From positions 2,055,604 through 2,087,603 of the forward strand of contig NZ_JBHSTI010000008.1 of assembly GCF_042660085.1 (NCBI RefSeq): a stretch of DNA of 32,000 bases, given 5' to 3'. This document shows, piece after piece, positions 24,152-30,597 of the stretch (the stretch's first letter is position 1; every line of letters begins with the position of its first letter). A program made the position numbers and the translations under genes. The DNA is from Longivirga aurantiaca. Lineage in GTDB: Bacteria; Actinomycetota; Actinomycetes; S36-B12; CAIYMF01. The notes beneath the pieces are model-generated. The model was not told the origin of the DNA. It did no database searches and saw only the letters and a program-made list of their open reading frames with translations.

Positions 24152-25759
24152 TCAGCCCGCGTATCCCGGGCTGGTGTAGCCGGCACCCGCGGAGGCCGCG
24201 AAGTCGACCGGTGCGCGGCCCTTGGTGACGTTCGGCCAGTCGCTGGAGGAGTTCCAGTTGCCGAGCCCGCCGGAGGTGAAGACGTTGTAGGTCGCGATGC
24301 CCTGCGGAGGACGGACGCGCCAGAGGATGTACTTCGCCTGGGCGTTGCCCACGATCTCGACGTTCTTCAGGACCCAGTTCTCGGTGACCGCGGAGGCCGT
24401 CGAGGTGTCGTGCGGGTTGAGGAACATGCCCTGGTAGCCGGTGGTGGCGGTGAAGCCGTCGACCAGGAGGGTGGTCGGGCCGTTCCAGCACTGGAGCGCG
24501 TCGGCGTGGTTGGTGGCCTGGGTCCCGGTGAGGACGGTGTCGATGGACACGTTCTGGACCTGCACCTTGGCCAGCGGGGCGCTGATGTTGATGCCCTCCG
24601 ACAGGTTGCCCGACGAGGAGATGAACCTGACGCCCTCGAGGTGGATCGTGCCGGTCTGGCTGAGGAAGTACGCGGCCCGCTTGACCATGCCGTCGGCGGG
24701 GACGCCGGGGCCGGTGCCGGAGCTGTACCAGCCGCCCGCCACGTCGACGGTTCCGCCGATGATGACGATGTTGCGGCCGCCCACGATCTCGAGGCCATGG
24801 GTGTTCCTGTACACCGCGTCGGTCGGGAGCCTGAGGATGTAGTCGGTGCCGGCCGAGAGGTTGATCCTGCCGTCGGGCTTGCTGGCGAGATCGATCGTCA
24901 CCGGGTTGGTGAGCGCCGGCGGGGCCCAGGAGAGCTCGGTGCCGCTCGGAGCCGGCATGGTGGCCACGGGCGCGGGGCTCGTGGTGACCGGCGCGGGAGA
25001 GCTGGTCACGGGCGCGGGGCTCGTGGTGACCGGCGCGGGCGAGGTGGTCACGGGCGCGGGGCTCGTGGTGACCGGCGCGGGCGAGCTGGTCGCGGGCGCG
25101 GGCGAGCTGGTCACGGGCGCGGGGGTCGTGCTCTCGGGTGCCGCAGCGACGTCGACGGGGTCGACGCGCAGGCCGGACACGATGGCGTAGTCCCTGCGCG
25201 CCTTGAACGCCAGCGACAGTGCGCCGTCCTTGACCGTCACCGTCGCGGAGCGGGTGAGCTCGACGTCGTGGCCGACGACCTTGTAGACGTCCAGGTTGGA
25301 GAAGACGGTGACGCCCTCGGCAGTCGCGCTGAAGACGCGCTTGCCCGAGGCCTTCCAGTACGGCTCGGCCATCACCAGCGTGACCTTGTAGGTGCCGTTC
25401 GCGACGGGGACCTTGTAGGCGCTCATCCCGAAGCGGTAGTTGCGCAGGACGCTGCCGTCCTCGGTGCCGGTGATCGGATCGGCGGTCTTGCCGAGCTTGC
25501 CACCGGTGAAGCCCGAGTCCGCGGTCCACACGGTGCCGTCGCTCGCGGTGAGGCCGGGGCCGCCCGCGTCGATGTTCAGGGACGGGATCGCTGCGTCTCC
25601 GGCGGAGGCGCCGAAGACCGAGGTGAGGCCGGCGACCACGAGGGCGGAGGCGACCCCGACGGCGGTGGCCGAGCGGCGGGACGAGGCGGCGGTGCGACCG
25701 GTGCCGGCGACGGTGCGTCGCGGCATCTCCGTGTGGCGCCCGGATGACGTGGTAGCCAT
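24152..25759 (-). CDS. secreted three-part protein: malectin-like carbohydrate-binding domain, P/T/S-repeat linker, unassigned C-terminal domain
   Basis: ORF 24152..25906 trimmed to the ATG at 25759, 9 nt after GAGGAG. The signal is Tat-like (SSRRSATAVGVASALVVAGLTSVFGASA). A malectin pattern is present (IDAGG...W.AD..F.GG...ITGT.D..L....RFG...Y..PV.NGTYKVTL..AE........GKRVF......G.....NLDVY). The linker is 8 x SPAPVTT. Confidence 0.8.
   Translation of the reverse strand: MATTSSGRHTEMPRRTVAGTGRTAASSRRSATAVGVASALVVAGLTSVFGASAGDAAIPSLNIDAGGPGLTASDGTVWTADSGFTGGKLGKTADPITGTEDGSVLRNYRFGMSAYKVPVANGTYKVTLVMAEPYWKASGKRVFSATAEGVTVFSNLDVYKVVGHDVELTRSATVTVKDGALSLAFKARRDYAIVSGLRVDPVDVAAAPESTTPAPVTSSPAPATSSPAPVTTSPAPVTTSPAPVTTSPAPVTSSPAPVTTSPAPVATMPAPSGTELSWAPPALTNPVTIDLASKPDGRINLSAGTDYILRLPTDAVYRNTHGLEIVGGRNIVIIGGTVDVAGGWYSSGTGPGVPADGMVKRAAYFLSQTGTIHLEGVRFISSSGNLSEGINISAPLAKVQVQNVSIDTVLTGTQATNHADALQCWNGPTTLLVDGFTATTGYQGMFLNPHDTSTASAVTENWVLKNVEIVGNAQAKYILWRVRPPQGIATYNVFTSGGLGNWNSSSDWPNVTKGRAPVDFAASAGAGYTSPGYAG
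24959..25126 (-). repeat. in-frame 21-bp tandem repeat, 8 copies, encoding (S/T)PAP(V/A)(T/S)(T/S)
   Basis: The plus strand shows alternating ggtgaccggcgcgggcgagct / ggtcacgggcgcggggctcgt units. Translation is TPAPVTS SPAPATS SPAPVTT SPAPVTT SPAPVTT SPAPVTS SPAPVTT SPAPVAT. Confidence 0.9.
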
Positions 25760-26186
25760 GATGTTGTGCTCCTCAGTCGGCACTGACGGCTGTGAAGGGC
25801 CGCCTTGCGGAAGTGCGCGAACACATGGGGTTTCGGGACAGCGAGGGGCTGGCTTGACCCCTCTGGGCGCGGATGGGCCATGTGGGTTACGTGCCCAAAG
25901 ACACATCTGCGACGGTCCCCGTCACGCGTCAGGAGGGCCGTCCCTGGCCCGTCCGGAGGAGGTGCTCCTCACCCCGCTGCGGTGCCGCCAGCGGTCCGTC
26001 CGTGTCGACTCCGTCACGCGGGGCGACGCCACTCACCCGATCGGCTCAGGGAGCGACGACCCGAGGGGGTCGGGTCGCCGATATCCGGCCAGTGGCGTGA
26101 TGTGACGTCGCCGACGTCGCTCTCCAGCCGCTCTCGCTCCGGCCGTGGTGCCGCGCCCGTCGCCGCGGATCGCGGCGTGGTCGGGT

Positions 26187-27233
26187 TCACCCGCGAGGAG
26201 CAGCCGCCTCTTGCCAGAGCGCCACGTTCCGGCTCACCTCGACCTCGGCCATGAGCGCATCGGTCCCCTCGTCGGCCGACAGCACGATCCGGTCGAGGAT
26301 CCGAAGGCCCGCGCGGGCCCAGGCGAGGACGAACAGCGCGGGCTCGAGGTCGGCGTCCGCCCTCCGCGCGACGTGCTCGGCGAACACCCGCCGCGCGCCA
26401 CCGTCCGGGCGCACGAGGTCGCGCACGAACACGTCCCGCTCGGCCGCCACGCCGTGCACGGCGGCGTCGGAGAAGGCCAGGAACGCGAGCAGCTGGGCGA
26501 GGTCGTGACCGACCACGCCGCGCTCGAGCCCGAGCTCCCAGTCGACGAGCCCGACCCTCGTGGTGCTGCCGCCGTCGAGGACGAGGATGTTGGGGTGCGC
26601 GGGGTCGCCGTGCTCGAAGACCGTCGGCAGCGTGCGTCCGCGGAGGGGCGACACGGCGTCGCGGGTGGCTGCGATCGTGCCGTGCAGCGCGTGACCGTCG
26701 GGCAGCAGCGCGGCGAGCCGCTCGAGCCGCGGCTCGAGCAGGGTGTCGAGCAGGTCCGTGCCGGAGCGCTCCCCCGTCACGGGCAGCCCGTCGATCCAGG
26801 CGAGGGCGCTGGCCCGGGCACCGGCGTCGGACCGCGCACGGGCGTGGGTCAGCGGCTGGCCCACGAGGGGCGTCTCGAGGAGCACGCGCCGCGACCCCAC
26901 CATCGCGCAGGCCACGACCGACGGCGTGGCCCCGAGCAGGCCGGGGGCGGCCTCGGACAACCGGCGCAGGACCGTCGCCTCGTGCACCACCGCGTGGTCG
27001 TCACGGACCGAGCGGGGCACCTTGAGGACGCTGCGGAGCCGGCCCTTGCGGTCCAGGACGAGGCCGACGACGTGCCGGGACTCCACGAAACCCGGTGTCA
27101 CGAGAAGGATCCGGGCCCCCTCCGGCAGCGCGTCGGACACTGCGGCCGAGGGCGCCGACCAGTCCAGGGGGTCGTCCGTCGCCGGCATGCCTGCCCGGAG
27201 GGCGTCCGCCACCACGTCGAGGTAGGTGCTCAC
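26187..27233 (-). CDS. APH / choline-kinase-fold phosphotransferase family protein
   Basis: ORF 26187..29951 trimmed to the GTG at 27233, which overlaps the flippase stop (GTGA). The kinase catalytic loop FEHGDPAHPNILV and the downstream GLVDWELG (Brenner and DxE-type motifs) are present. Confidence 0.7.
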   Translation of the reverse strand: MSTYLDVVADALRAGMPATDDPLDWSAPSAAVSDALPEGARILLVTPGFVESRHVVGLVLDRKGRLRSVLKVPRSVRDDHAVVHEATVLRRLSEAAPGLLGATPSVVACAMVGSRRVLLETPLVGQPLTHARARSDAGARASALAWIDGLPVTGERSGTDLLDTLLEPRLERLAALLPDGHALHGTIAATRDAVSPLRGRTLPTVFEHGDPAHPNILVLDGGSTTRVGLVDWELGLERGVVGHDLAQLLAFLAFSDAAVHGVAAERDVFVRDLVRPDGGARRVFAEHVARRADADLEPALFVLAWARAGLRILDRIVLSADEGTDALMAEVEVSRNVALWQEAAAPRG

Positions 27234-29344
27234 GGCTCGTCCGTCCGTCCTGTCGCGATACGGTCGCGCGCCACCCACGCCACGAGCCCCACCGAGACCA
27301 GCACGCGCGCCGCGAAGGAGAGCACCCTGCCCCGTCGGCTGCCCTCGTGCCGGTGGAGCGCGGCGAGCACCACCGGCCGGGCGTCGAGGGGGACGAGCAT
27401 CGTGCGGGCGCTGCGGCGCGGCGCCTCCCAGTGGAGCGACACGTCGCGCAGGCCGGCTGCCTCGAGGGCGCGCGTGGTCGAGCGCAGCGAGCGCCGGGTG
27501 GCCGCCACCTCGATCACGACCCAGGTGCCCGACGGGACGTCGCGCAGGGCGTCGGAGAACTCCGAGGGGTGGAGGCGCCCGAGACGGACGCCCGCGCCGA
27601 CCTCGGGCAGCAGGAACAGCGGGTCGTCGACACGGGGGTCGAGCGCCGCGAGCGCACGCGCCGTGGCGCCCTGCTCCCCCTCCGCTGCCGGAGCGCTGCC
27701 CGAGCCGCCGGCGCTGGAGGCCACGCGGTAGGGGTTGCGGGTGCTCCGGGCCCCGCGGGACGAACCCCTGCGGAGCAGCGGACCCGCGACCGGGATCTTC
27801 AGCAGCTCGGGGAACGTGTGCGCGACGTCGAGGTACGGCAGCGTCACGAACAGGACTCCGAGGGTGGCCGCACCCGTCAGGAGCACGGACAGGATGAACC
27901 CGGCCCCGACCCAGTACTGCAGCAGCGACGTCAGCACGACGCCGAGGAGCATGGCGGTGTACGGCGCCGCCATCCACGGCTCGACGACACCGGACGGGAG
28001 CCCGCGCAGGCCGAGCTGGCGCACCACGTTCCCGAGGACGAGCGACAGCGCCATGCCGACAGCGGCGCCCCACGCGCCGAGCGGCGGGATGAGGGCGAAG
28101 GCGAGCACCGTGCCCAGCACGAGCACCGCCATGTTGGAGAAGAAGATGAAGCGCAGCCGACCGGCGGTGGCCATGAGGATCGCGCTGAAGCCCGACGCCG
28201 CCTGGAACCAGAAGCCGAACCCGAGGATCGCGAGCAGCGGGGCGCTGTCGGCGTACTGCGAGCCGAGCAGCGTCACCGTGACGGGCTCGGCGAACGAGAC
28301 GCTGAGGACCAGCGCCGGGTACGACACGAGGGCGACCCACAGCGCGGTGCGCCAGTAGGTGAGGCGCACCCCCTCCATGTCGCCGCGCTGCCAGAGCCGC
28401 GTCACCATCGGCGGGAACAGCACCCAGAAGGCGCCCGCGGCGGCCATCGAGAGCTGCGCGATGGGCATGACCGCCCGCAGCGACGCGACGTCGGCCGCGG
28501 TGCCGACCGCGCCGAGGACGAACGTCGGCAGCGCCATGACCACGACGTAGACCAGCGAGGAGGTCAGGAGGGGGAAGCCCTCGCGGAGCATGGGGCGCAC
28601 CGGCATCGTCACGCGGCCGTGCAGCTCGGCGAAGAAGCCGAGCCGCGAGAGCAGACGCAGCACCATGACGACGTAGATCGACACGCCGAGGAGCGAGGCG
28701 AGGACGTACCCGACGGTCAGGCCGTAGACGCCGGCGCCGAGGAAGAACACCGTGACGATCGCGGTGAGGCGAAGGCCCGGCTCGAGCAGGTAGCGCCGTA
28801 CGAAGACGGCACGCGCGCTCGCGAACGTCGCGAACGTGTTGACCACCATCGCGTCGAGCGCGGCGAGAGGCGCGAGCAGCACCATGAGCACCAGCAGGTT
28901 CGCCGCCGTCTCGGACGGCGCGATGCCCGGCGACAGGCGTCCGTGCCAGAGCAGCACGAGCAGGAAGACGATCGAGCCGAGGGAGATCACCACGAGCGCC
29001 TCGGTCACGAGGACGCCGACGACCTTGCGGTCGTCCCCCTCCTCGTCGTACTTCGCGAGGAAGCGGGAGTCGACCCGGTCGAGACCGAGAGGGATCAACG
29101 ACTGCACGAGCGTGACGATCGAGAGCGCCCAGGCGAACGCGCCGTAGTCGTCCTTGGTGAGCACGCGGACGAGCAGCAGCTGGATGACCAGCCCGAGACC
29201 CATGCCGAGCAGGCGACCGACGAGCAGCAGCGCGGAGCCGCGCATCTGCGACTTCGACGACGCCTTGCCCCGCGGGGCGCGCACCGGAGCAGCCTCGCCG
29301 TCCCCGGGCACCGCGTTGCTGTCGAGCGCCTCCTCGGCGCTCAC
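27230..29344 (-). CDS. Wzx-like MOP-superfamily polysaccharide flippase fused to a roughly 190-aa soluble C-terminal domain of unknown function
   Basis: About 12-14 TM segments beginning GSALLLVGRLLGMGLGLVIQLLLVRVL (typical Wzx N-terminus). A Gly/Ser/Ala linker and a non-membrane domain follow, up to the stop at 27230. I chose the GTG at 29344 because it forms a GTGA overlap with the upstream stop, as at other junctions in the locus. Alternative starts are the GTG at 29359 (ORF track) and the ATG at 29245. Confidence 0.75.
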   Translation of the reverse strand: MSAEEALDSNAVPGDGEAAPVRAPRGKASSKSQMRGSALLLVGRLLGMGLGLVIQLLLVRVLTKDDYGAFAWALSIVTLVQSLIPLGLDRVDSRFLAKYDEEGDDRKVVGVLVTEALVVISLGSIVFLLVLLWHGRLSPGIAPSETAANLLVLMVLLAPLAALDAMVVNTFATFASARAVFVRRYLLEPGLRLTAIVTVFFLGAGVYGLTVGYVLASLLGVSIYVVMVLRLLSRLGFFAELHGRVTMPVRPMLREGFPLLTSSLVYVVVMALPTFVLGAVGTAADVASLRAVMPIAQLSMAAAGAFWVLFPPMVTRLWQRGDMEGVRLTYWRTALWVALVSYPALVLSVSFAEPVTVTLLGSQYADSAPLLAILGFGFWFQAASGFSAILMATAGRLRFIFFSNMAVLVLGTVLAFALIPPLGAWGAAVGMALSLVLGNVVRQLGLRGLPSGVVEPWMAAPYTAMLLGVVLTSLLQYWVGAGFILSVLLTGAATLGVLFVTLPYLDVAHTFPELLKIPVAGPLLRRGSSRGARSTRNPYRVASSAGGSGSAPAAEGEQGATARALAALDPRVDDPLFLLPEVGAGVRLGRLHPSEFSDALRDVPSGTWVVIEVAATRRSLRSTTRALEAAGLRDVSLHWEAPRRSARTMLVPLDARPVVLAALHRHEGSRRGRVLSFAARVLVSVGLVAWVARDRIATGRTDEP

Positions 29345-30597
29345 CGCACGCCCGACCACGTGCGCCAGACGAGTGACTCGACCTCGCGGCGCACGGTCTC
29401 GGCATCGTTCGTCGCATCCACGACGACGACATTGTCATACCGGTCGCGCAGGTCGAGGTAGCGCTGGCGCCGCTCCTCGAGGATCTCCGGCGTGTGCTCA
29501 CCCTTCCGGTCGAACATGAGCTGCCCCGGGGCGTCGAGCACGACGAAGACGTCGGGTGCCGGGCAGCTGTGCAGGAGCAGCGAGTAGCTGACGCGGGCGC
29601 GGAAGGTCGGCTTGCCCGGGCGCAGCAGGGCGTCGACGACGTGCCGGTCGTAGAGCACGACCCGGCCGCGGCGCTGGTCGACCGCGGCCTTGGTCGAGCG
29701 CCAGCGCAGCTTCGCGAGCTTGAGGCCGAGACCCACCCCCGGGACGCGCTGCCAGGCGGGCTCGTGCGGGTCCACTCGGAAGACCCCGAGGTAGCGCACC
29801 GAGACGGCGAGCGGGATCGCGTCGCGCAGACCCTCGACGAGGGTCGTCTTGCCGGCGCCGTCGGGGCCGAGCACCGCGAGGGCGACACCGGGGCTGCCCG
29901 GCGACCTCCAGGAGAGCGCGTCGCGCAGCCGCCGGGCCTGGCGGGCGGCACGACCGGGTCGACGCTTGAGCACCGGCTCCCACCGGGCGATCAGCTCACG
30001 GAGCTGGGAGTCGTCGCCGCCCAGCGCGGCGGCCGCGGCGGCAGCCCCGGCTGCGGCCTGGCCGGCACCGAGCAGGGCGTCCACCGCACCGGGCAACGGG
30101 CCGCCCGGGTGCGGTACGCCGGTGAGCGAGGCAGTCCCGCGGTGCACGGCGCGTACGAGGGCGAGCCAGTCGCGGTCCTCGGCGGCGACCCGGCGCACGC
30201 CGTCGTCACCGAGCTCGGCGCGCGCGAGCAGGTCGTCGAGCACCGGCAGCACGGCGCTCCTCGGCCCGGCCGCCTCGACGACGGGGAGGAGGTCGAGCAC
30301 GAGCCAGCCGTCGTCGGTGGAGGACCGGCGCACGAGCAGCCGGTGCGGCAGGTGCTCGGGCGCACGCCGGAGCACGAAGCCGGTGGCGACGAGCGCGGGC
30401 AGCACCCGCGGCAGGTCTGCCTCGCGCACCAGGACGTCGACGTCGCCGCCGGGACGGTCGAGCGCGCCGCGCAGCACGGCCCAGGCGGCGCCGGTGGAGT
30501 CGAGCGCGCTGAACGCGGCCACGAGGTCGGGGTGGACGTCGGCAGCACGGTCGGGGCTGGCGACGGGGCCCGCCTCGTCCGACGGCGGAGTGAGCAC
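29341..30597 (-). CDS. two-domain protein: N-terminal nucleotidyltransferase-like domain (NTP_transf_5-like) + C-terminal P-loop kinase (thymidylate-kinase-like fold)
   Basis: ORF 29341..31761 trimmed to the GTG at 30597, which shares 1 nt with the upstream TAG. The N-terminal half reads AWAVLRGALDRPGGDVDVLV...ATGF. The C-terminal half has Walker A (VLGPDGAGKTTL) and LYDRHVVD. The start position is uncertain. Confidence 0.6.
   Translation of the reverse strand: MLTPPSDEAGPVASPDRAADVHPDLVAAFSALDSTGAAWAVLRGALDRPGGDVDVLVREADLPRVLPALVATGFVLRRAPEHLPHRLLVRRSSTDDGWLVLDLLPVVEAAGPRSAVLPVLDDLLARAELGDDGVRRVAAEDRDWLALVRAVHRGTASLTGVPHPGGPLPGAVDALLGAGQAAAGAAAAAAALGGDDSQLRELIARWEPVLKRRPGRAARQARRLRDALSWRSPGSPGVALAVLGPDGAGKTTLVEGLRDAIPLAVSVRYLGVFRVDPHEPAWQRVPGVGLGLKLAKLRWRSTKAAVDQRRGRVVLYDRHVVDALLRPGKPTFRARVSYSLLLHSCPAPDVFVVLDAPGQLMFDRKGEHTPEILEERRQRYLDLRDRYDNVVVVDATNDAETVRREVESLVWRTWSGVR

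Follow-up and report, generated by a model that had tools for sequence, protein, structure and literature searches.

A Wzx-type flippase of Longivirga aurantiaca with a predicted cytoplasmic domain from a kinase-associated, methyltransferase-like family

What a soluble domain does at the C terminus of a polysaccharide flippase, and how it relates to the kinase gene that overlaps its end, are questions raised by one gene of Longivirga aurantiaca. The gene lies in a stretch of 32,000 nucleotides (contig NZ_JBHSTI010000008.1, positions 2,055,604 to 2,087,603), which is called the window below and is numbered from its first letter. On the minus strand, an open reading frame (ORF) at 27230..29359 encodes a MOP/Wzx-type flippase and continues into a C-terminal extension, here termed domain X; its stop codon overlaps the start of a gene for a kinase of the APH/choline-kinase fold. 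Structure models and family comparisons indicate that the extension folds, lies in the cytoplasm, and is a shortened member of an unannotated family, also referred to as X. Gene order across relatives identifies X as a fixed part of a cassette, composed of a nucleotidyltransferase (NTase)/P-loop kinase-like gene, X, and an APH-fold kinase gene, in Wzx/Wzy-type glycan loci.

The flippase-X reading frame

The ORF spans 709 amino acids (aa) from its first GTG and contains no stop after the last transmembrane segment, as claimed in the original prediction; its limits were taken from the ORF list, Pfam matches, and homologues of 674 to 711 aa with matching layout. The transmembrane domain (residues 1 to 515; 27815..29359, minus strand) was recognized by Pfam, hydropathy, and 38% identity to the flippase part of P0051, a triple fusion described below. 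Matches to Polysacc_synt (PF01943; residues 40 to 318, 64.8 bits, cut-off 28.2) and Polysacc_synt_3 (PF13440; residues 62 to 374, 40.1 bits, cut-off 23) identify the product as a putative MOP/Wzx-type polysaccharide flippase, with a predicted role in repeat-unit translocation. Thirteen segments had a hydropathy of ≥1.5 and one more, at residues 375 to 397, reached 1.47, giving an estimate of about 14 transmembrane helices, the last of which ends at about residues 507 to 512. Both ends of the transmembrane domain were predicted to be cytoplasmic because both flanks are rich in Arg and Lys, and the layout is thus that of MOP/Wzx flippases (12 to 14 helices with both termini in the cytoplasm).

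An alignment of homologues placed an Arg-rich juxtamembrane segment and a Gly/Ser/Ala-rich linker next (residues 516 to 573; 27641..27814, minus strand). The juxtamembrane motifs TFPELLKIPVAG..LRR and NPY were invariant among the aligned homologues, and the linker (about residues 531 to 573) was gapped and variable in length. Domain X follows in a short form of about 136 aa (residues 574 to 709; 27233..27640, minus strand), delimited by an AF2 model, profile search, hhalign, and weak Foldseek matches. Of the C-terminal domain of about 190 aa that had been proposed, a folded soluble domain is therefore predicted to exist, with the folded part accounting for about 136 aa and the juxtamembrane segment and linker for the rest.

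The junction with the kinase gene was read directly from the sequence as a GTGA overlap (27230..27233, minus strand), in which the flippase-X end, GAG CCG TGA (TGA at 27230-27232), overlaps the kinase start, GTG AGC ACC (GTG at 27231-27233). This overlap had also been reported in the original prediction, and GTGA-type tight junctions between flippase-X and kinase genes were present in loci L005, L007, L014 to L020, and L035. A second GTGA overlap (29341..29344, minus strand) joins the stop of the P-loop gene to a probable GTG start of the flippase. Homologues begin with MSADKALD, MNAEEALD, or MTAEEALD at the position of this GTG, and the true start is therefore probably the sixth codon, at 29344 (704 aa, N terminus MSAEEALD), rather than the first GTG, at 29359. 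With this start, the P-loop gene, flippase-X, and the kinase gene would all be joined by GTGA overlaps and so would be translationally coupled.

Long ORFs are expected by chance in a genome of 73% G+C, yet third-position GC in the flippase-X frame remained at 0.90 to 0.98 right through the extension, which argues that the extension is more than a chance reading frame. With residues 520 to 709 as the query, 17 protein clusters were found, 16 of which are 674 to 711 aa long and combine PF01943 with the extension (53 to 86% identity). Six related genomes carry the flippase-X frame without stops, and seven named loci, mostly from metagenome-assembled genomes (Candidatus Nanopelagicales or Actinomycetota), keep the order P-loop gene, flippase-X, APH kinase. 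The ratio of nonsynonymous to synonymous substitution rates (dN/dS), as obtained from comparisons of the window with L014 and L015 only, was 0.28 to 0.33 for domain X versus 0.21 for the transmembrane part; comparisons with L016 and L017, in which the frames were wrongly assigned, were set aside. In none of the fused relatives does a stop or frameshift split the flippase from the domain. An assembly or frameshift artefact merging two genes, which had been raised as an alternative, is thus extremely improbable, given the high third-position GC across the junction, the same uninterrupted ORF in independent genomes and metagenomes, and the failure to find any evidence in its support.

The X family and its gene contexts

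A profile of X, built from ten flippase-fused copies only, was scored against 1.84 billion representatives and matched 152 proteins (for example, P0022 at an E value of 1.8e-15). The 150 listed representatives were sorted by Pfam scans and by phmmer with the window's three proteins. X stood alone in 94 (<260 aa, typically about 200 aa, including some gene-call fragments), preceded an APH kinase homologous to that of the window in about 37 (470 to 570 aa), and formed the C terminus of an NTase/P-loop protein in 5. Three were flippase-X proteins, and one, P0051 (1,073 aa), was a flippase-X-APH protein; 6 had no detectable partner domain, and 5 were low-complexity false positives. Two apparently free short copies, P0019 and P0020 (114 to 127 aa), are gene-call fragments, P0019 being identical to the tail of the L005 flippase-X ORF save for one residue, so the count of free-standing X is slightly inflated. 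An X-like match in genome G307 (L031, 1026-1655) contains one in-frame TGA and may be a broken copy or two genes.

By hhalign (99.9%), the window clade could be aligned to the wider X family along 116 columns, beginning at the helix that precedes the PGGW strand and running to the end. No Pfam or NCBIfam family covered the extension, the only hits being noise (DUF6232 and Glyco_transf_43 at E of about 0.1), and a profile of the extension retrieved nothing meaningful among PDB sequences. The best-conserved motifs of X are DWRFLLP, PGGW, (H/Y)WHAP, VPLD, and RHxGxRxGR, none of which was recognized as a methyltransferase motif. The family is patchy, 12 of the 301 genomes sampled from the phylum having a copy, and occurs once in the genome of the window.

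Across the loci compared, X was found fused to the flippase, fused to the kinase, and free-standing. The suggestion that the domain is the detached N-terminal part of the kinase, and a single protein with it elsewhere, is supported by the roughly 37 X-APH fusions and by P0051. X nevertheless appears to be a separate module and not simply a piece of the kinase, because the free gene of about 200 aa is the commonest form and fusions to P-loop proteins also occur.

Where X is free, its gene is flanked by the P-loop and APH genes, which it overlaps by 4 bp, and a MOP flippase is nearby; it always lies directly upstream of the kinase gene. The fused versions occupy the slot of the free gene. In P0028, P0030, P0044, and P0088, a long form of X is attached to the C terminus of the NTase/P-loop protein and an APH gene overlaps downstream, which links X to both enzymes of the cassette. 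The triple fusion, P0051 (L012, 6668-9889), joins a flippase of the window's subfamily, long-form X, and an APH kinase in one chain, and the preceding P-loop gene ends on the base where P0051 starts. Two loci, L026 and L027, hold a flippase of the window's subfamily (37 to 40% identity) that ends about 10 residues past the TFPEL motif (in L026, about 10 residues beyond TFPELARVPVVRR); a free long-form X of 212 aa begins 12 nucleotides later and is followed by an overlapping APH kinase gene. This arrangement represents a putative unfused state from which the fusion in the window can be derived. A second, independent flippase-X fusion (L035, 4874-8918) has long-form X and an APH gene with a 4-bp overlap; its flippase is also of the MOP type and has no BLAST-detectable similarity to that of the window. 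The overlapping neighbor upstream of this second fusion is not a P-loop protein and looks Wzz-like by eye (two hydrophobic segments around a long Ala/Gln-rich region).

In a tree of X, which had low resolution (138 columns), fusion states were scattered, with flippase fusions at no fewer than two positions. The window clade, P0038, and P0051 were separated from one another, and P0051 was nested in a clade of X-APH fusions. Adjacency, stop/start overlaps, and fusions in most pairwise combinations thus link X, the APH kinase, the NTase/P-loop protein, and the MOP flippase, as judged from gene arrangement. In the lineage of the window, the flippase gene would appear to have come between the P-loop gene and X and then to have fused to X, the N-terminal third of X being swapped for a flexible linker and the kinase remaining translationally coupled downstream. 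Around the P-loop/X/APH cassette in L011, L012, and L034, GH16 glycoside hydrolases, several GT2 transferases, PKD-repeat proteins, and a YdjM-family protein recur. These recurring neighbors hint at a shared type of polymer, possibly a beta-glucan-like exopolysaccharide.

The kinase of the window (348 aa; 26187..27233, minus strand) matched Pfam APH with 35.9 bits (cut-off 23.2), in agreement with the original assignment to the APH fold, and ends shortly after the kinase fold. Its catalytic set is intact (the Lys of VLKVPR, HGDPAHPN as the HxDxxxxN motif, and DWE as the D-x-E motif), and these residues were invariant across 33 X-APH fusions. A profile of those 33 proteins matched choline/ethanolamine kinase (E = 0.0034) and APH structures in the PDB weakly; the kinase alone had no PDB match by sequence at E ≤ 1. 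The upstream partner (29341..30597, minus strand) combines an NTase-like half (GDVDVLV) with a thymidylate-kinase-like P-loop half (GPDGAGKTT, DRH); it matched Thymidylate_kin/DTMP_kinase and NTP_transf_5 below threshold in Pfam and NCBIfam, and thymidylate kinases in the PDB at an E value of 2.4e-5. Just downstream of the kinase gene, at 24152-25906, the window encodes a secreted protein in which a malectin domain (Pfam, 71.7 bits) is accompanied by an eight-fold Pro/Thr/Ser repeat.

Predicted fold of domain X

The X domain of the window was modeled with AF2 (residues 560 to 709, 118-sequence alignment) as a five-stranded alpha/beta domain with a mean predicted local distance difference test score (pLDDT) of 92.8. 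A hydrophobic stretch at residues 679 to 697 (hydropathy 2.06) was modeled as a helix, after which come a shorter one and the last strand of the sheet. A transmembrane helix at this position was rejected, both by the high confidence of the helix model and the placement of the next strand in the sheet and by the occurrence of the same segment before cytosolic kinases and at the ends of P-loop proteins. The extension is therefore predicted to be soluble and not membrane embedded, as originally proposed, with the terminal hydrophobic stretch belonging to the fold. A cytoplasmic location of X is predicted because the flippase has an estimated 14 transmembrane helices and Arg-rich flanks.

Foldseek searches with the short-form model returned weak matches, all of them methyltransferases (best E value, 2e-3; TM-score of about 0.3 to 0.4), and because of this weakness a long-form relative was folded as well. 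The free long-form protein P0029 (212 aa) was predicted with seven strands (pLDDT 89.7) and had 155 matches in the PDB at E ≤ 1e-3. All 50 of the matches listed were class I S-adenosylmethionine (SAM)-dependent methyltransferases, related enzymes of the same fold, or the noncatalytic anamorsin domain. The N-terminal domain of anamorsin (PDB 4m7r, 2yui, and 2ld4), which is methyltransferase-like and is not described as an enzyme, was among the best matches (E = 1.7e-5); it differs from X in being eukaryotic, in its involvement in iron-sulfur protein assembly, and in lacking a detectable sequence relationship to X. The models thus indicate that full-length X members have a class I methyltransferase fold.

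The window copy is accordingly modeled as a homologue of the C-terminal two thirds of this family, from which beta1, the following helix, and beta2 are gone. Class I methyltransferases are recognized by a seven-stranded sheet with a beta6-beta7 hairpin and by a motif I GxGxG loop after beta1; the window model has five strands, and the region of motif I is missing from it. Similar short forms were found in some X-APH proteins. MAFFT paired LFLLP of the window with beta4 of the long form, a pairing that is doubtful, as short-form X-APH proteins show D.RFLLP directly and then one strand. By hhalign, the window X was paired with the family only from the helix after LFLLP onward, and its first 27 residues had no assigned counterpart.

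At the site of the methyltransferase GxGxG loop, the X consensus reads V-[AG]-Y-x-G-x-x-D, and GxGxG was found in 3 and GxG in 14 of 102 X family sequences. The original prediction had noted that an LxEVGAG stretch in the window faintly resembles a degenerate Rossmann motif I. In keeping with that idea, a Rossmann-type class I methyltransferase fold is predicted for the family, but the glycines of EVGAG are not conserved in the more distant flippase-X proteins (L005 has FFPPTGVVRVG and L007 has FLTPTGAPVTMLVG), the family consensus is without GxGxG, and the window copy is without the N-terminal part in which motif I sits; LxEVGAG was therefore rejected as a motif I homologue. No methyltransferase family in Pfam or NCBIfam scored above threshold, and Methyltransf_23 was matched below threshold in 8 of 118 members (best E value, 0.012), the window copy not among them. 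Because the family is without GxGxG and the window copy is without the N-terminal third, X is probably noncatalytic, most confidently so in the shortened form found in the window.

Possible roles of the fusion

The reading preferred here, to which a probability of about 0.5 is assigned, is that X serves as an adaptor by which the glycan kinase is tethered to the flippase, the repeat unit thus being phosphorylated or decorated just before it is flipped. X would no longer bind SAM or methylate and would instead be a structural partner of the kinase, docking or scaffolding the APH-type enzyme and perhaps the P-loop protein too. With X joined to the flippase by a flexible linker of 25 to 45 residues, the kinase would be kept where the transporter opens to the cytoplasm, and the lipid-linked repeat unit would there receive a phosphate, or a substituent attached through phosphate, right before flipping. 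Such a physical coupling of cytoplasmic modification to export is plausible because X has become fused to two unrelated MOP flippases and the overlapping kinase gene has been retained in both cases.

Several points weigh against an adaptor. Fusion and adjacency favor a shared function and do not prove contact; the kinase could act on a small molecule instead of a lipid-linked glycan; and the conserved DWRFLLP, PGGW, WHAP, and RHxGxRxGR motifs could build a ligand site and not a protein interface. The structural matches of the short form were, as described above, weak, and most X members have no flippase fusion, so that tethering is clearly not essential to the module. A stricter version, in which flippase-X is a built-in export checkpoint of the Wzx pathway whose dead methyltransferase-fold domain recruits the kinase, and perhaps the NTase/P-loop enzyme, so that only phosphate-decorated units are translocated, is put forward tentatively and is unlikely in itself. 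By analogy, it would correspond in the Wzx pathway to the WbdD cap, which the carbohydrate-binding module of an ATP-binding cassette (ABC) transporter reads.

Glycan modifiers that pair a methyltransferase with a kinase, and MOP flippases with appended cytoplasmic domains, are already known in kind. WbdD (Escherichia coli O9a/Klebsiella pneumoniae O3), in which a methyltransferase (residues 1 to 210) adjoins a kinase (residues 211 to 459), phosphorylates the end of the lipid-linked O antigen on the cytoplasmic side of the membrane and then methylates it (PMC3482155). The X-APH fusions (470 to 570 aa) share with it the order and similar sizes of the parts, a methyltransferase fold of about 200 aa lying directly N-terminal to a kinase in about 37 relatives; in the window, X and the kinase are encoded by two overlapping genes, and it is the flippase to which X is attached. 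The differences are considerable: the WbdD kinase is Src-like and that of the window APH-type; X is without motif I, whereas the methyltransferase of WbdD is an active, SAM-binding enzyme; and WbdD works with a coiled-coil ruler and an ABC transporter, whereas the window locus is of the Wzx/Wzy type, with X on the flippase instead of the kinase. No WbdD chain was matched in the PDB by the X-APH profile of 33 proteins at E ≤ 10. In ORF6 of K. pneumoniae O7, an N-terminal terminator, a methyltransferase precedes a kinase whose nearest structural relative, AmiN, is an APH-fold kinase, and the protein phosphorylates a mimic of the glycan repeat unit in vitro (PMC11231755). The X-APH fusions share this methyltransferase-then-kinase layout; ORF6 differs in that its methyltransferase is active, in forming part of a coiled-coil polymerase protein, and in belonging to an ABC-transporter pathway.

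An actinobacterial precedent for the flippase part is mycobacterial MviN/MurJ (Rv3910), whose cytoplasmic pseudokinase is phosphorylated by PknB and recruits FhaA (PMC11898655, citing Gee et al. 2012). MviN resembles flippase-X in being an actinobacterial MOP flippase to which a catalytically inactive cytoplasmic domain is fused, a domain that in MviN serves contacts between proteins. It differs in that its pseudokinase is followed by an extra transmembrane helix and an extracellular domain, whereas X is a predicted shortened methyltransferase fold with no further transmembrane helix, its hydrophobic end lying within the soluble fold, and in that its substrate is lipid II, in place of the glycan repeat unit expected for the window flippase.

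In the teichoic acid Lic system of Streptococcus pneumoniae, the choline kinase LicA and the substituent-specific MOP flippase TacF serve one pathway, a pairing of an APH/choline-kinase-fold kinase with a MOP flippase that recalls the window. The window kinase differs in matching choline/ethanolamine kinases weakly (E = 0.0034), and the scanned part of the window yielded no cytidylyltransferase, LicD, or choline transporter. No part of the Lic pathway is known to be fused to its flippase.

First among the competing explanations, and itself unlikely, is that X reads a ligand: a remnant of the methyltransferase pocket would bind a phosphorylated sugar or the product of the kinase and select modified units for export, acting as a checkpoint and not as a dock. 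The methyltransferase domain of WbdD binds the phosphorylated glycan end beside the kinase (PMC3482155), and the WHAP and RHxGxRxGR motifs (Arg-rich in the window clade) are compatible with phosphate binding. X is also kept even where the nucleotide-binding half is deleted. The short form, however, is without a third of the fold, and ligand reading alone does not explain the fusion of X to the P-loop protein.

Second in standing, and likewise unlikely, is a neutral fusion, in which X works with the kinase only and the loss of a stop merely joined adjacent cotranslated genes. Most X copies are not fused to a flippase, and the gap of 12 nucleotides in L026 and L027 means that a small deletion would have been enough to join the two genes. 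Neutrality is at odds with the retention of the fusion across lineages in which X is 42 to 48% identical to that of the window (dN/dS being about 0.3 for the two closest pairs compared), with its renewed origin on the unrelated flippase of L035, and with the triple fusion P0051; a permanent membrane tie of a soluble partner would, moreover, be expected to be selected against if location were irrelevant.

The idea that the extension is a regulatory tail, phosphorylated or bound by the neighboring kinase so as to switch flipping, is more doubtful. Mycobacterial MviN/MurJ offers an actinobacterial precedent of a MOP flippase that has a cytoplasmic regulatory domain fused to it (PMC11898655), the kinase gene is translationally coupled to flippase-X, and the domain has invariant Ser/Thr residues, for example in TRR.LRS and EGS. 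The kinase belongs, however, to the APH/choline-kinase type, whose substrates are small molecules and sugars, and the structures that it matches best, if weakly, are those of choline/ethanolamine kinase and APH. X also accompanies the kinase in many loci without being attached to any flippase, so that regulation of a flippase cannot be its primary role.

An active SAM-dependent methyltransferase acting on phosphate or sugar, as in WbdD and O7 ORF6, is very improbable for the window X: the predicted family fold, the subthreshold Methyltransf_23 matches, and the order of a methyltransferase-like part and then a kinase are outweighed by a family consensus without the motif I glycines, five strands versus the seven of the long form with the motif I region gone, and the lack of any Pfam or NCBIfam methyltransferase model at threshold.

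A full-text literature search for the combination of P-loop, X, APH, and flippase genes found no paper. What is new here is the placement of the flippase tail as a shortened member of X, the census of architectures, the unfused and triple-fused intermediates, and a model-based argument that the tail is soluble and probably inactive. X appears to be a family of about 130 to 200 aa, without a Pfam or NCBIfam model, that is an obligate partner of an uncharacterized APH-type kinase in glycan loci. "Hypothetical proteins" of about 200 aa encoded between genes annotated as "thymidylate kinase" and "aminoglycoside phosphotransferase" would accordingly represent one degenerate methyltransferase-fold family. 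The substrate choice of Wzx flippases, and the coordination of late cytoplasmic decoration with flipping, are poorly understood, and flippase-X, together with the natural flippase-X-kinase chain, provides ready-made constructs for testing a physical coupling of modification to export.

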